DNA of 64,000 nucleotides from Eledone cirrhosa (lineage: Eukaryota), in NCBI GenBank assembly GCA_964016885.1, contig OZ024742.1:174716001-174780000 (forward strand). Reading direction: 5' to 3'. Shown here one piece after another: positions 3,520 to 54,530 of the stretch (position 1 is its first letter; each line of letters starts with the position of its first letter). Made by a program: the position numbers and the translations under genes. A model generated the notes under the pieces. That model was not told where the DNA came from. It made no database searches and saw only the letters and a program-made list of their open reading frames with translations.

Positions 3520-3943
3520 ATATGGCTGTTGCTTTAATGCTATGCTAGATTTTGCTGGCATTTATTTTCACATTTTCTATTGTAATTTAATTTGTAAAGT
3601 ACTGTTCTACTTAATGCATTATAAATTTTATAACATTTTAAAACATTTTCTTTTCAATTTGACATGTTATACTATGCATAAGAGTAAATAAATATGTAAG
3701 AGATTGCTTCCTTTGTATTCATCTAAATTTAATATTAGTTTTATTTTATTAATAGCTGACGAATCAATACTGATAATTCAGCAATACTGTAAATAATGAA
3801 TAATTTTATTTACAAATATATGAGTATGATGTAGCTGTGTAGAAGTAAAAATATATATTAAAAGTGTACTAAATGGCAGTGAAATGATAGTTGGAGTTTA
3901 AATATATATAACAATATCTATGTAACATTGTGTGTGTCTGTCA

Positions 3944-18592: not shown

Positions 18593-18949
18593 GTGTCATT
18601 AAACAGATAATGTTATTAAAAGAGAGGGACAATTCTTTTTAATTTTTTTTTTTTTTTTTTTATGAAGTATATAAAGTATATGAGAAAACTACCAGTTTCG
18701 ATGTATTAGATCCATCTTGTCAAATTCAGTGAAAAAAGTTAATTAAAAAGAGTTGGTAGGAGTAAAGAAAGGTTTAAAATTAAAATCAAAATCGAATGTT
18801 TGAGTAACATTTCTTCCATCATGCTTCCTGAGAAGTTGGCTGGGATTCAGGAAGCATGATAGAAGAACTTTTACTCAAACATTCGATTTTTTTTTAATTT
18901 TAAACCTTTCTTTACTCCTACCAACTCTTTTTAATTAAGTTTTTTCACT

Positions 18950-18992
18950 GAATTTGACAAGATGGATCCTAATACATCGAAACCGGTAATTT
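18950..18992 (+). ncRNA. Minimal type I hammerhead ribozyme motif, U3-A8 core variant
   Basis: gaat-UUGACAA-gaug(gauccuaaua)cauc-GAAA-ccgg-UA-auuu; mirror copy on the minus strand at ~18687-18729. Confidence 0.68.
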
Positions 18993-19854
18993 TCTCATAT
19001 ACTTTATATATAATAACAATATCTTTTATCTTTTTAATAACACTATCTTTGCAATAATGTCCCTTTGACGAACCAAAGAAGAAAATCAGACCCTTAAATA
19101 TATCTCCCGTGCAATTTCCAACTTTCTCTTTTCTCTCTCATTTCATTTTCATTTCATTTCCCGTCCACTTTTCCCTGCTTGCATATATATACGTGTGTGT
19201 GTGTGTGTATATATACATATATATATACATATATATGTATATACACATGTGCCCATAACTCATGTGGAATGGTAAAGAATGTGTAAAATTGATGAGGACG
19301 ATGGTAATTTAATTACGAAAGTAATACTTGCTAGCATAAGAAAGCTATAAGAAATGCCTCTGGTGTATCCAATACTATAAAATGAAATATATATGATTAT
19401 GTTACATGGACACATACTATAATAAGCTGAAATTACTGAAAACAATACTGATACTTTAACTTAAAACAAACATTTTCTCTCCGAAGAGAATATTATAAGC
19501 AATGAAAGCTGGCACCTGTTGTAATACTATAAATTATACACTCAAATACTGTTGGTTCATTCATAAGTTAATCTTTTAATCAATCTCACTTCAACTAGAA
19601 AGTTTTTCCATATATCTTTGTTCATATCTTGAACTTTGAAAATAAGGTAATATATTATTACTTTATGTACTTTGTGATTAATGGTATCATGCTATCCTAT
19701 ATGCCTTCAGGTTAGATTTTTGGGTCATATAGGTTCTTTACAATCAATGGCTACTCCATGGCTATTTCTTTAAAAAAATATGCCAAAAGTTAGATATTTA
19801 ATAAGCTTATCAATCAATATATATACACCAACACAAATCTTTTTAATTTTTTCA

Positions 19855-36420: not shown

Positions 36421-36759
36421 ATGATGAAGTGACAGAGTTGTTACAATGTTACATAGAATGCTTTGTGGTGTTTGTTCTCATGCTCGGCACTCTGAATTCA
36501 AATTATTGCTGATTTCAATTGTTCTTACATTCTTTTGAGCTTAATAAAGTATCAAACCAATACTGGCCTTGAATCTTCCTCTACATCTCTCTCCCCCTCC
36601 CCCCCCTCTCACTCTCTCTTTGTAAGAAATTGGCTCTGCAAGTGATTCCCTTGTCTCTAGCAACAGTGAAATGAAGAATACAGTTTATAACACCCAGAAA
36701 AAAGTTATTCATCACCACCACACAAACTTCCCCAACCATTAAGAGATCTATATTAAAAC

Positions 36760-37700
36760 AGGTACACTGTATCCTTGTGCTACTGTGTGTATTAGGGTTT
36801 TCAATAGGTATACTGTATCCTTGTATTGCTGTGTATTAATGTTTAGAATAACTAAACTGCATCCCTTTAATGTTTATCTGGTTTAGAATAGGTACACTGT
36901 ATCCCTGTATTATTGTGTATATCTCGTTTACAATAGGTATAATGTATCCCTATATTATTGTGTATATCTGGTTTACAATAGGTATACTGTATTATTGTGT
37001 ATATCTGGTTTACAATAGGTATACTGTATCGCTGTATTATTGTGTTTATCTGGTTTACAATAGGTATAATGTATCCCTGTATTATTGTGTATATCTCGTT
37101 TACAATAGGTATACTGTATCCCTGTATTATTGTGTATATCTGGTTTACAATAGGTATACTGTATCGCTGTATTATTGTGTTTATCTGGTTTACAATAGGT
37201 ATACTGTATCGCTGTATTATTGTGTATATCTCGTTTACAATAGGTATACTGTATCGCTGTATTATTGTGTATATCTCGTTTACAATAGGTATACTGTATC
37301 GCTGTATTATTGTGTATATCTGGTTTACAATAGGTACACTGTATCCCTGTATTATTGTGTATATCTGGTTTACAATAGGTATAATGTATCCCTGTATTAT
37401 TGTGTATATCTGGTTTACAATAGGTATACTGTATCGCTGTATTATTGTGTATATCTGGTTTACAATAGGTATACTGTATCCCTGTATTATTGTGTATATC
37501 TGGTTTACAATAGGTATACTGTATCCCTGTATTATTGTGTATATCTGGTTTAGAATAGGTACACTGTATCTCTGTATTATTTGTATATCTGGTTTAGAAT
37601 AGGTACACTGTATCTCTGTATTATTTGTATATCTGGTTTAGAATAGGTACACTGTATCCCTGCGTTACTTTGTGCATCAGGGTTTAGAACTGTATCTCTG
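36760..37700. repeat. 45-bp minisatellite, about 20 units
   Basis: Unit aataggtatactgtatccctgtattattgtgtatatctggtttac; 15-aa periodicity in the ORF track; diverged edge units. Confidence 0.97.
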
Positions 37701-44882: not shown

Positions 44883-46099
44883 TATTATCATTATCATACA
44901 TCTGCTTTCCAAGCATATGTCAGTGGAATGCTCAGCCACTTACACATTAATTTCATGGGTAGGCTGTCTCATTGATCGAATAACTAGAACAATCATCGCC
45001 AAAACTGATGTAGGTCCATTCCATATCATGAAACATTGGTCTTGTCTCGTCTTATAAAAATAATACTGATTGTTAAAATATAGGAATGTAAATATATATT
45101 TTATAAATGTATTGAATTACAAAAGTAATCATATAAGGACTTACTCATGTATTCATGAAGAGAATGAATGAAAAGGAAATTAAGAATGAAACATAACCCT
45201 TCTAACCATGGAAATTCCTGGCAAAACCTGAGAAAGACAATAAAGAAATTTAATTAGTTGGATTTTTTTTTTTCAATAATAGAGGTGATCCAAAATAAAA
45301 TAATAAAAAAGTGGGGAAAAAAGTTGGTGGTGGGGGGGGGATAATGAAAGCAAAAGAAATAAATGGTTGTTTTTCACAAAAGAAGGGGAAAAATAGTATT
45401 ACTAAAGGTTTTGTGTGTGCATGTGTGTATCTGTGTCTGACTATCAGGTGTGTCAATGATAAATGGTAAAAGGAAAGAAGGACCTTTATTAATCAGTTCA
45501 AAGTTGTAGTTAATATGTCGCAGACAATCTCTTTTTCTATAATTGAAACTCAACAGATTTCAGCAGCAAGATTACACATCTTTTGTTCATATCATTTAAA
45601 GCTTCTCTAAGAAATTGATGTATATTATGTTATGTGTTGATGGGGTATATTTAGTTGTTTATGTATTGGTGTTACTCTCTTCATATATTTATTCTATGGT
45701 TTCACTGATATTAATTCAGCAAATGATCTGCCGATGGCTAGTGAGTTGTACGAACAATGGGAGGTCTTTATTTAGTTTTTGTTATAAGTTTTTTGTTTTT
45801 TTTTTATGCTGATTTTATTGTTGTAAATATGATTTTAAAAATATAACCATCTAGACAAAATGAATGAAATTCTTTTATTCTTTCACTAGTTTCAGTCATT
45901 ACACTGTGGTCATGCTAGGGCATTGCTTGAAGGGGCCTAGTCAATCATACCAACACCAGTATTCATTGTTTTCATGTCTGCTACTTATTTTATTGATCTC
46001 CTATTTCTGATGTGCTAAGTTATAAGACAACATAAACATGCACCCACACACACACATTTATATATATATATATATATAAAAGTATATATATATATATAT

Positions 46100-46215
46100 A
46101 TAAAAATATGAAATCGAAAATGCAACTGGAATCTTATTTTTAAAAAAATATATATATTTATTTGGTTCCTTTACCAGTTTCGCAGTTCTTCTGCTTTTCA
46201 AAAGTAGAGTTGAGA
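46100..46215 (-). mobile_element. Single-arm copy of fold-back element 2 with hammerhead motif
   Basis: Closely matches 53255-53364; the minus strand reads cuu-UUGAAAA-gcag(aagaa)cugc-GAAA-cugg-UA-aag. Confidence 0.85.
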
Positions 46216-46258
46216 TAGAGGGTCTGTGGTTTTTCTCACACACACATATATATATATA

Positions 46259-50907: not shown

Positions 50908-50910
<3 letters not shown>

Positions 50911-52770
50911 TTGATCTAGATGAAATGCAGTTCGGGTTTGTGTCAGGAAAAAGTACCACAGACGCTCTTTTCATTGTACGACAACTACAGGAGAAGTACC
51001 TAGCTAAAAGTAAACCCCTATACTTAGCTTTCGTCGACTTGGAGAAAGCCTTCGACAGAGTCCCCCGTTCCATTATCTGGTGGTCTCTTAGAAAACTAGG
51101 TGTTGACGAATGGCTTGTGAGAGCTATACAAGCCATGTATAAAGAAACAGTCAGTAAGGTTAGAATTAACAACGAATATAGTGAAGAGTTTAGCGTAAAA
51201 GTTGGTGTCCATCAGGGCTCTGTACTTAGCCCCCTACTATTTATTATTGCCCTTCAGGCTATAACAGAGGAGTTCAAGACCGGCTGCCCATGGGAACTCC
51301 TATACGCAGATGATCTAATGCTCATAGCTGAATCAATGACCGAACTAGAGAAGAAATTCCAAACATGGAAGCACGGCCTAGAATCAAAAGGCCTTAAAAT
51401 TAACCTGGCTAAGACAAAAGTTCTAGTTTGTAGGAAAGAAAATATGGCGGCAGTCCCATCTGGGAAATGGCCATGCTCAGTGTGTAGGAAAGGCGTAGGT
51501 AGAAACTCCATTTTATGTCCCAAATGCAAAGTATGGGTGCATAAAAGATGTAGTGGGATCACAGGTAAGCTAACGAAGAACATAGATTTTACATGTGGCC
51601 GGTGCTCTGGTGCAATAAGTAGCAGCAAGTGCCCACAAAATACTAGCTCCTTCAACTGCGCAGAGGGTTCTATAGAAATAGTGGACAGCTTCCGTTACCT
51701 GGGTGACAAAATCAGCAGTGGGGGAGGGTGCTCTGAAAGTACAGTAGCTAGAGTCAGAACTGGATGGAAAAAGTTCAGAGAGCTTATACCACTATTAGCC
51801 GCTAGAGGGTTCTCCCTAAAAATGAAAGGCAGGTTATACGATGCCTGCATACGAACAGCAATGCTGCATGGCAGTGAGACCTGGGCATTGTGTGCAGAGG
51901 ATATACGCAGACTAGAGAGGAACGAAGCTTGCATGCTCCGCTGGATGTGCAATAGTAATATACGTGAACGGCAAAGCATAAACGAACTAAGGAAAAAATT
52001 AGAAATAAGAGGGATCAGATGTTGTTTACTCGAGAGAAGGCTACGTTGGTACGGTCACGTGATGCGCATGAAAGACGACAGCTGTATAACAACGTGCAGG
52101 GCAATAAAGATAGACGGTAGCCACGGAGTAGGCAGACCCAGAAAAACATGGGACGAGCTGATAAATTCCGACCTCACACGCTTACACCTCTCCAAGACAA
52201 TGTCACTGGACCGAGACCTTTGGCGGTACTCAGTAATAGAGAAGACCCGCCTTACCTAAATACAAAGTAAAAACCTACTACAGTCAGTAGGCATCTCTAT
52301 CAAAACACCCCCCCGTCCCACCACCTCCACCCCATCCACACCGCCCCTTTCAATGTACAGTTATGTTGGTCCCACAACATCCAGGCCGAAACAAATGAGA
52401 TCGTGTAGGTGTCACGACAAAAAAACACACAGTCCACGCTGTAAATGTGGCCGTGTAGGCAACACGGTAAAAACCTCCCAGCCCCACACTGTAAATGTGG
52501 TTGGTGTTAGGAAGGGCATCCAGCTGTAGAAAACCCGCCAGACAGTCCACGCTGTAATGTGGCCGTGTAGGCAACACGGTAAAAACCTCCCAGCCCCACA
52601 CTGTAAATGTGGTTGGTGTTAGGAAGGGCATCCAACTGTAGAAAACCCACCAGACAGTCCTATGCGAGCAAGACAACCACTCTTGCCTCAAGTGTGAAAA
52701 CCCCCGTCCAAACCCATGCAAGCGTGGAACACGGACGCTAAACCTGATGATGATGATGATGATGATGATA
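50908..52770 (+). mobile_element. Young 5'-truncated RTE LINE with a ~114-bp tandem duplication in the 3' UTR
   Basis: Starts abruptly after (TA)n, intact ORF, UTR block ~52430-52545 repeated to ~52660, (gat)n tail. Confidence 0.96.
50925..52259 (+). CDS. RTE LINE reverse transcriptase, C-terminal 444 aa (no endonuclease; the start Met is internal), with inserted C4HC3 finger
   Basis: QFGF, AFVDLEKAFDRVP, GVHQGSVLSPLLF, LLYADD, FRYLG, RLRWYGHVMR, GRPRKTW; no stops. Confidence 0.93.
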   Translation: MQFGFVSGKSTTDALFIVRQLQEKYLAKSKPLYLAFVDLEKAFDRVPRSIIWWSLRKLGVDEWLVRAIQAMYKETVSKVRINNEYSEEFSVKVGVHQGSVLSPLLFIIALQAITEEFKTGCPWELLYADDLMLIAESMTELEKKFQTWKHGLESKGLKINLAKTKVLVCRKENMAAVPSGKWPCSVCRKGVGRNSILCPKCKVWVHKRCSGITGKLTKNIDFTCGRCSGAISSSKCPQNTSSFNCAEGSIEIVDSFRYLGDKISSGGGCSESTVARVRTGWKKFRELIPLLAARGFSLKMKGRLYDACIRTAMLHGSETWALCAEDIRRLERNEACMLRWMCNSNIRERQSINELRKKLEIRGIRCCLLERRLRWYGHVMRMKDDSCITTCRAIKIDGSHGVGRPRKTWDELINSDLTRLHLSKTMSLDRDLWRYSVIEKTRLT

Positions 52771-52777
52771 TATAAGC

Positions 52778-52898
52778 TCAGACAGTCCTATACAAGCAGG
52801 ACAACCAATCTTGCCTCAAGTGGGAAAACTCCCGTACAAACCCATGCAAGCGTGGAAGATGGACGTTAAACGATGATGATGATGATGATGATGATGAT
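52778..52898 (+). mobile_element. Extra very short RTE 3'-tail insertion
   Basis: Repeats 52651-52770 with divergence; has its own (gat)n tail. Confidence 0.85.
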
Positions 52899-52899
52899 A

Positions 52900-53213
52900 A
52901 GCTCTTTTTACAAAACGTTTTTTTCAATTTCAGGTAGACGCGCACCATCATCCAATTTTCTAAAAAAACAAGTCATACACAAAACGCCAGCACCAAAAGT
53001 TGTGCAAGAGATGTCAACATGAATGGACCTATTATTTCTATCTAAAGACATTTTTTCCAATTCTATCCCGCCCATCCCCCTTAATCTATTTTATTTCTCA
53101 TTATTTCTTCTGATGAAGGACTAGCGTCCGAAACATAAGCGTTAACCTAATATATACCTTCCCTATACTGTACCGATTGTGTTGTTATTTCTGTTTACCT
53201 TTTACATACATAT

Positions 53214-53215
<2 letters not shown>
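52900..53215 (+). mobile_element. Probable Penelope-like 3' fragment with hammerhead-like motif
   Basis: CUGAUGA-a-ggac(uagc)gucc-GAAAC at 53110-53134; lies between (gat)n and (ta)n; no coding evidence. Confidence 0.5.
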
Positions 53216-53241
<26 letters not shown>

Positions 53242-53248
<7 letters not shown>

Positions 53249-53550
53249 AAAAAGAGATGAAATCGAAAATGCAACTGAAGTCTTATTTTTTTTTTAAATA
53301 TATATATTTATTTGGTTCCGTTACCGGTTTCGCAGTTCTTCTGCTTTTCAAAAGGTGAGTTGAGTCTCAACTCACCTTTTGAAAAGCAGAAGAACTGCGA
53401 AACCGGTAAAGGAACCAAATAAATATATATATTTTTAAAAAAAATAAGACTTCAGTTGCATTTTCGATTTCATCTCTTTTTCTTTATACTTTCACTCGTG
53501 TAGGACACCTCGGTTATTTTTCATTTTGTAAAAAAAAACTCACTTTCTAA
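53242..53550. mobile_element. Fold-back palindromic element 2 (123-bp arms, 1-nt spacer) with 3' extension
   Basis: 53242-53364 and 53366-53488 are reverse complements with 3 mismatches; the extension ends ctcactttctaa then (ta)n. Confidence 0.92.
53375..53412 (+). ncRNA. Minimal type I hammerhead ribozyme motif, U3-A8 core variant
   Basis: ccuu-UUGAAAA-gcag(aagaa)cugc-GAAA-ccgg-UA-aagg; stems I and II fully Watson-Crick paired; predicted cleavage after A53408. Confidence 0.75.
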
Positions 53551-53559
53551 TATATATAT

Positions 53560-54530
53560 TGCGCAGAGGGTTCTATAGAAATAGTGGACAGCTTCCGTTA
53601 CCTGGGCGATAAAATCAGCAAGTGGGGGAGGGTGCTCTGAAAGTACTGTAGCTAGAGTCAGAACTGGTTGGAAAAAGTTCAGAGAGCTTATACCACTATT
53701 AGCTGCTAAAGGGTTCTCCCTAAAAATGAAAGGCAGGTTGTACGATGCCTGCATACGAACAGCAATGTTGCATGGCAGTGAGACCTGGGCATTGTGTGCA
53801 GAGGATATACGCAGACTAGAGAGGAACGAAGCTTGCATGCTCCGCTGGATGTGTAACAGTAATATACGTGAACGGCAAAGCATAAACGAACTAAGGAAAA
53901 AATTAGAGATAAGAGGGATCAGATGTTGTTTACTCGAGAGAAGGCTACGTTGGTATGGACACGTGATGCGCATGAAAGTCGATAGCTGTATAACAAAGTG
54001 CAGGGCAATAAAGATAGACGGTAGCCACAGAATAGGCAGACCTAGAAAAATCTGGGACGAGCTGATAAACTCCGACCTCACACACTTACACCTCTCCAAG
54101 ACAATGTCACTGGACCGAGACCTTTGGCGGTACTCAGTAACAGAGAAGACCCGCCTTGCCAGTAGGCATCTCTAACAAAATACACCCCGTCCCGCCACCA
54201 CCCCCACCCATCCACACCACCTCGTCCTATGTAAAGTTATGTTGGTGCCGCGCCATCCAGGCCGAAACAAATGAGATCGTGTAGGTGTCACGACAAAAAA
54301 ACACACAGTCCACGCTGTAATGTGGCCGTGTAGGCAACACGGTAAAAACCTCCCAGACCCACACTGTAAATGTGGTTGGTGTTAGGAAGGGCATCCAACT
54401 GTAGAAAACCTGCCAGACAGTCCTATGCGAGCAAGACAATCACTCTTGCCTCAAGTGGGACTACCCCCATCCAAACCCATGCAAGCGTGGAACACGGACG
54501 TTAAACGTTGATGATGATGATGATGATGAT
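53560..54530 (+). mobile_element. Young 5'-truncated RTE LINE
   Basis: Nearly identical to 51658-52770, with a +1 frameshift near 53620; (ta)n on both sides. Confidence 0.95.

Follow-up and report, generated by a model that had tools for sequence, protein, structure and literature searches.

Dimeric hammerhead ribozymes of Penelope-like elements (PLEs) are reportedly the subject of a 2017 RNA Biology paper. Hammerhead cores with a U3-A8 pair, and hammerheads paired on opposite strands, have been in print since 2011 and 2014: PMC3088659 describes U3-A8 covariation in nature and refers to activity in vitro, and Cervera and De la Pena (2014; PMC4209133) describe U3-A8 minimal hammerheads in the Cercyon PLEs of Schistosoma, with opposite-strand pairs and weak cleavage as dimers. 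As these motifs are presented there, their stem I is short, a palindromic 15-16 segment takes the place of stem III, and there is a G10.1-C11.1 pair; they lie mostly solo or in opposite-strand pairs 100-700 bp apart.

The insertions of PLEs have been characterized in other work. PMC8557442 (Craig et al. 2021) and PMC3846280 report inverted truncated copies, tails, a TA bias, a TATA box and initiator within the repeat, and head-to-head palindromes, together with a proposal of antisense self-priming. For the green anole Poseidon element PAc, PMC11167929 describes two reverse transcriptase (RT) start sites that bound a tail, an AT-rich target, extension of both strands, and protein-assisted cleavage that is dispensable. 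Finally, the animal non-LTR retrozymes of a preprint (bioRxiv 10.64898/2026.07.22.740005) are presented as short repeats with hammerheads, related to PLE terminal repeats.

Here we analyze a fold-back locus in a 64,000-nt stretch of the Eledone cirrhosa genome (the window). The original prediction had taken it for a young, non-coding, Penelope-mobilised family with a U3-A8 hammerhead in each arm, whose cleavage could be switched off by formation of the hairpin. The feature is very probably the terminal repeat of a young, autonomous PLE of Neptune type, inserted head-to-head and 5'-truncated, likely in the ordinary course of insertion; the hammerhead is carried along as a passenger, with cleavage predicted only for a dimer or with help from a protein. 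Copies of this family normally have arms facing head-to-head, a (TA)n target and the tail on a single arm. The fold-back represents a common type and not a new sort of switch, because it is the remnant of an abundant coding PLE with a U3-A8 variant already in print; the implied novelty was overstated, given the U3-A8 cores and opposite-strand pairs of PMC4209133 and the covariation in PMC3088659.

The fold-back locus and its hammerhead motif

The sequence confirms the palindrome: two arms of 123 nt (53242-53364 and 53366-53488) face each other around a 1-nt centre at 53365 and mismatch at three positions (53294, 53295 and 53320). The parts of the locus are given below in window coordinates; L079 is one of the long loci that carry the parent element.

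53206..53245, no strand: long (TA)n tract, left target flank; 3' ends of the family adjoin (TA)n
53242..53364, minus strand: left arm, a 5'-truncated PLE end that stops at the inner 3' end site and has no tail; 95% identical to L079 3668-3789
53318..53355, minus strand: hammerhead motif of the left arm, mismatched in stem I at 53320; sequence and predicted fold
53365..53365, no strand: inversion centre, about 28 nt 3' of the inferred start site; copy mapping
53366..53488, plus strand: right arm, a PLE end in the sense direction; 97% identical to L079 3667-3858, including the tail
53375..53412, plus strand: predicted minimal type I hammerhead motif; sequence, descriptor and cross-family alignment
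53489..53550, plus strand: 62-nt tail, on the right arm only, separating the two 3' end sites; copy mapping, and loose ends in reads at both sites
53551..53559, no strand: right flank, a short (TA)4, beyond which lies a truncated piece of an unrelated LINE; sequence
46095..46240, minus strand: second, solo copy of the same PLE family, from the inferred start site to the inner end site; 90.5% identity

The location between (TA)n tracts holds on the left, where the tract is long; on the right there is only the (TA)4, 62 nt past the palindrome. Both arms lack the TATA box and the initiator, and this copy is probably inert because such promoter-like motifs are missing from its sequence. In the solo copy the hexamer has decayed by one C-to-T change, and a search for PLE ORFs inside the 64-kb window found none. 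The neighbourhood includes two 5'-truncated copies (50908-52900, with an open 449-aa frame, and 53560-54530) of a LINE that has an RT and a PHD-like finger; the copies are 93-97% identical and start at TA tracts. A 45-bp minisatellite of 20.6 copies with 90% matches occupies 36753-37662.

The right-arm motif consists of stem I (53375-78 with 53409-12), the U3-A8 core (53379-85), stem II (53386-98), GAAA (53399-402) and a self-complementary hexamer (53402-07) that stands for stem III, as had been predicted. The predicted cut falls after 53408, with a predicted 3' product beginning at 53409. Descriptor and alignment find the core boxes with a Watson-Crick 3-8 pair, G10.1-C11.1 and the palindromic 15-16 segment all present, A9 adjoining G10.1 directly with no base between. 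Of the two hammerheads expected, one in each arm, only this one is intact: in the left arm one pair of stem I is lost to the mismatch at 53320, and the predicted fold lacks that stem.

Copies were counted throughout the 3.0-Gb genome as exact pattern matches, with reversed patterns as control. A 21-mer of the motif gave 12,631 matches and a 22-mer downstream of it 16,942, each against 0 for the reversed control; the motif is not a product of chance. The motif shares with the Cercyon hammerheads of PMC4209133 the U3-A8 core and the traits listed above. It differs from their description in that source by a stem II of 4 bp instead of 7-8, by the lack of an extra 9/10.1 base, a common trait there that lies outside the descriptor, and by its numbers: at least 12,631 near-identical copies against about 1,300 heterogeneous ones, with U3-A8 dominating this hexamer class.

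With the Rfam covariance models, no hammerhead family was found at E<=10, and only hairpin-shaped microRNA models matched. The monomer has an ordinary folding energy (z -1.18), and its predicted fold pairs U3 with A17. The computed dimer fold reaches -18.9 kcal/mol against -4.7 for the monomer, and full pairing of the hairpin, at -184.8 against -4.7 kcal/mol, would bury the motif. Since the monomer energy is not unusual, the case for the motif rests on its conservation across families.

A U3-A8 pattern that excluded this family's intact stem II gave 3,515 matches, among them a few mutants of the window-motif family, against 12 in the control. These motifs form at least three further families with unrelated stem II sequences, one of them adjoining a PLE endonuclease that has 55-59% identity with ORF2 of the parent element (below). 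In a cross-family alignment all core positions, including the paired U3-A8, are common to families with unrelated stems; stem I of the sister families has just 2 bp and a mismatch. With C3 in the pattern there were 137 matches, mostly point mutants, against 153 in the control. For an identical 3' half, U3-A8 cores come to at least 12,631 plus 3,515, against 137 with C3, and a canonical CUGANGA search would, as foreseen, miss the family and more than 16,000 hammerhead motifs in this genome. The expectation that the core is conserved above its flanks found marginal agreement within the family: A/T-matched variation was 0.92% in the core and 2.01% in the flanks (p = 0.039, one test), a comparison confounded by base composition, loop 2 being as invariant as the core.

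Several related motifs were seen in passing. The window holds another head-to-head pair (18668-19010, 91% complementary) from a different Penelope-type family; it carries U3-A8 motifs at 18950 (+) and 18727 (-) and has about 70% identity with family C loci. Canonical C3-G8 minimal hammerheads with another palindromic hexamer, also in inverted pairs, lie at L019 1948 and 2415 and L073 7823 and 8256. A small family (L270, L272, L275; about 15 of the 100 matches listed in the C3 pattern search) combines a C3 core and an unpaired A8 with a stem II that is longer and leads into the same hexamer. Six copies about 9.6 kb apart at G000:C1:348863669-348911674 have a common U3C change and form a tandem segmental array. 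Within the family itself, two similar-sized subfamilies differ at two bases (L079 3676-3677; window 53374-53375), which shifts the closing outer stem I pair.

The coding parent element

At one locus (L039) the motif continues 1.1 kb upstream into the C-terminus of a GIY-YIG endonuclease. A search with the GIY-YIG peptide returned 10,487 candidates, and 16 of the best 150 scored lie in 775-aa open frames with a mean identity of 98.9%. Copies could in this way be extended to an autonomous RT/GIY-YIG ORF, as had been proposed, and the Penelope link and the youth of the family both stood; the claim of a non-coding family fell, because the motif makes up the terminal repeat of a two-ORF, autonomous element.

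Four of 20 long loci (L073, L074, L076, L079) carry a tandem in which repeat, hammerhead, tail, ORF1 and ORF2 follow one another, the 62-nt tail running straight into ORF1; inverted copies occur at many of the 20. ORF1 has 409-410 codons and overlaps ORF2 in the -1 frame (L079 3853-7316). As a protein of 400 aa it has no Pfam match and only eight database relatives. ORF2 (P0002) encodes an RT followed by a C-terminal GIY-YIG domain in one frame: the GIY-YIG match (E 2.1e-6) is above the cut-off, and the RVT_1 match (E 1.3e-6, 28.7 bits) is 0.9 bit short of the Pfam cut-off of 29.6. Its translation shows a CX4CXXC linker between RT and endonuclease, and a CCHH motif. It has 823 homologues, unnamed or generically named, and no solved structure was matched by sequence.

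These features recall the Neptune elements as described in PMC8557442: an RT, a CX2-5CxxC linker, a C-terminal GIY-YIG with CCHH, a (TA)n bias, partial tandems, an inverted 5'-truncated copy, a tail at one end and a hammerhead near the 3' end. The same source gives the linker and CCHH for both Neptune and Nematis, to which the CX4CXXC form is common. The EN+ PLE traits present also include CCHH with two cysteines between GIY and YIG, and pseudo-LTRs formed by partial tandems. Differences from what that paper describes are a tail of 62 nt instead of 30-40, and an ORF1 without a Pfam match and with its few relatives. On linker, CCHH and (TA)n, the parent, a young and autonomous PLE, would be of Neptune type. 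Two further arrangements were noted: L072 holds two 3.9-kb units, 99.7% identical, each with an inverted stub, ORF2 and 3' end, with a TA tract between them, and L031 240-2411 holds pieces of an unrelated Penelope-like element with RT and GIY-YIG beside a copy of the family.

In 18 of the 19 copies compared, the two ORFs overlap at the heptamer U-UUU-UUA, which we take to be a slippery site, and the Phe-Leu matching it is kept in five aligned ORF1 relatives of the eight found. ORF2 is likely reached by a -1 frameshift, judging from this arrangement; simple folding found no strong hairpin downstream. A figure legend of PMC8557442 allows a frameshifted ORF1 in some PLE types. EN+ PLEs are described as retaining an intron near the promoter, and for this family an intron with its donor at the cleavage triplet and its acceptor in the tail was considered: no precisely spliced genomic copy was found, only two microhomology deletions, and of the donor-like and acceptor-like motifs visible near the promoter the donor is not kept in family B. 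Inside the tail, a pyrimidine tract followed by GTAG or ATAG recurs in three otherwise dissimilar families (window 53470-53503; L095, L098, L106, L121) and resembles a splice acceptor or a protein recognition site.

Origin of the head-to-head arms

To describe the arms we used 100 copies anchored on the downstream 22-mer in the first 26 Mb of contig C1, three of them mis-mapped to a neighbour. Their 3' ends fall at two fixed sites, 62 nt apart, that adjoin (TA)n: 59 arms end at the outer site, 38 at the inner and three elsewhere. Both sites precede a TATA stretch able to pair with (TA)n. Half of the sampled arms belong to head-to-head pairs, and exactly one arm has a tail in 23 of 25 pairs (31 of 35 in a partly overlapping set). 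The first 100 motif matches include 22 with a neighbour on the opposite strand within 5 kb; every one of these pairs is head-to-head, at spacings of 56-3,547 bp; because the spacing differs from copy to copy, the inversion point is not fixed.

At the other end, 51 of the 100 arms begin at L079 3636-3650, around a CA dinucleotide 29 nt 3' of a TATA box. From these motifs and the ends of the DNA copies we infer that the pile-up marks the start of transcription. The predicted cut is spanned by at least 85 of the 100 arms (88 by script, before removal of the mis-mapped ones). The templates were likely sense, uncleaved RNA, because about half of the arms start some 29 nt past the TATA box and at least 85 cross the cut; an unprocessed RNA is likewise the main template of PAc in the account of PMC11167929.

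We propose that transcription would begin in an upstream repeat and pass through hammerhead, tail and ORFs, ORF2 being read by the -1 frameshift. The endonuclease would nick both strands of a (TA)n tract, and the RT would copy sense RNA from both nicks, starting at the outer site for one and at the inner site for the other. Both cDNAs would run off the 5' end of the RNA or stop early, and joining of their ends would give the palindrome. Read-through of the window copy would then yield double-stranded RNA of 123 bp, in which the ribozyme would incidentally be buried. This scheme follows PAc (PMC11167929) in its two start sites bounding a tail, its AT-rich target and the extension of both strands. 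It departs from that description in the target homology, the PAc start sites being not homologous to the target; PAc also has a C3-G8 core and an ORF that starts inside the hammerhead.

The main competitor keeps the same PLE and makes the second arm without a second RNA-primed start: the first cDNA would snap back and prime itself, or an antisense template would be copied, which is the proposal of PMC3846280. We regard this route as possible, if doubtful. It accounts for symmetric junctions with a 1-nt centre, at the window locus and at L171, and fits the near-perfect palindrome equally well. Arms are also more alike within pairs (1.4% difference) than between pairs (2.9%), and the subfamily is concordant in 33 of 35 pairs against 79% expected. 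Such likeness points to a shared source, with which snap-back copying is still compatible. However, either arm may be the longer one, and tail-less arms also stop exactly at the inferred start site, as run-off on sense RNA would have it; two RNA-templated arms are favoured for these two reasons. In PMC11167929, moreover, purified PLE protein uses two start sites on the RNA, cutting and extending both strands.

Possible hammerhead cleavage and the significance of the family

Copies of cleaved RNA are expected to start at the equivalent of window 53409, which is L079 3711. Junction counts at L079 3711, 3712 and 3705 were 105, 33 and 26, obtained with filters that are not equivalent and with 38 of 100 listed being ambiguous TA joins. 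An end-neutral search gave 464 matches; among the first 100 listed, 72 were scripted and 28 (small indels, deletions or duplications) were dropped by eye. Of 40 junctions among the matches listed, two lie at 3701, seven at 3702-3707, 21 at 3708-3711 and ten at 3712-3714. The rise is significant against the upstream side (p = 0.0003; matched AAA runs 13 vs 2, p = 0.007) and not against the downstream side (p = 0.28). A sharp peak of copy ends at the cut, suggested by eye in 11-12 of 45 arms and by the first counts, is not established, the scripted tally of 40 junctions being a broad plateau at 3707-3713. This plateau could equally come from stalling at structure or from microhomology. Scaled up, the excess is estimated at about 1-2% of arms.

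It is worth weighing, as a somewhat unlikely reading, that the hammerhead is vestigial, or a structural or protein-binding site, and cuts nowhere in vivo. The number of arms that span the site, the weak stem I of the sister families and the predicted U3-A17 mispairing would all agree with this, as would the anole element, for which PMC11167929 gives cleavage as dispensable in vitro and saw no RNA ends at the site. Against it stand the full core with its paired U3-A8 in families with unrelated stems, the excess of 3,515 matches over 12, the lower variation of core than flanks in its one test, and the modest excess of junctions at and around the site.

A dedicated, non-coding fold-back family of retrozyme type, mobilised by Penelope and with a hairpin that turns the ribozyme off, is very improbable. 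Short copies are indeed far more numerous than coding ones, the hairpin is very stable, and the retrozyme preprint (bioRxiv 10.64898/2026.07.22.740005) has animal retrozymes derived from PLE repeats. Yet there is no fixed unit, as inversion points vary continuously; the arms match the end of the coding element at 95-97% identity and have no sequence of their own; no tandem array was seen, and the left-arm motif is damaged. Retrozymes as that preprint describes them are tandem, non-autonomous units, unlike the dispersed inverted stub of a coding element found here. Of the proposed off-switch, burial of the motif by full pairing would hold, whereas a regulatory switch is unsupported because the inversion point varies, the arms have drifted and the window copy lacks TATA box and start site; nothing indicates selection on a read-through hairpin.

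An assembly or library fold-back artefact can be dismissed as extremely improbable: the palindrome is near-perfect and its junction is known here from the assembly, but the arms differ at three sites and by the 62-nt tail, half of the sampled arms are in such pairs under a consistent one-tail rule, and contigs from public runs (four runs of one study, possibly of the source sample) contain opposite-strand joints and (TA)n loose ends at the same two sites. Just as negligible is a miniature inverted-repeat DNA transposon or microRNA hairpin, suggested by a long inverted repeat in TA and the Rfam microRNA matches, since these score 71 bits against a gathering threshold of 245, and the arms are unequal, variably 5'-truncated and continuous in sequence with an RT ORF.

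The single locus matters little, being one of thousands of retrotransposon stubs of a known kind. The family, by contrast, is a natural dataset: young, with intact frames, and with copy ends that can be counted genome-wide. With half of the arms in head-to-head pairs, read-through may produce long double-stranded RNA. The family also bears on two questions about Penelope elements, whether inverted arms have sense or antisense templates and whether a minimal hammerhead cuts in vivo. In our literature search, no paper was seen to relate the 5' ends of genomic PLE copies to a start site or to the cut, although subscription papers or supplements may contain such a map or this family. We suggest, tentatively, that the approximately 17,000 arms could be a fossil map of the 5' ends of germline RNA, in which half run off at the start, showing sense RNA to be the template of the inverted arms, with paired priming from two sites, and 1-2% start at the hammerhead cut. 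If true, this minority would give the first trace of a minimal Penelope hammerhead cleaving in vivo, in this case one with a U3-A8 core.
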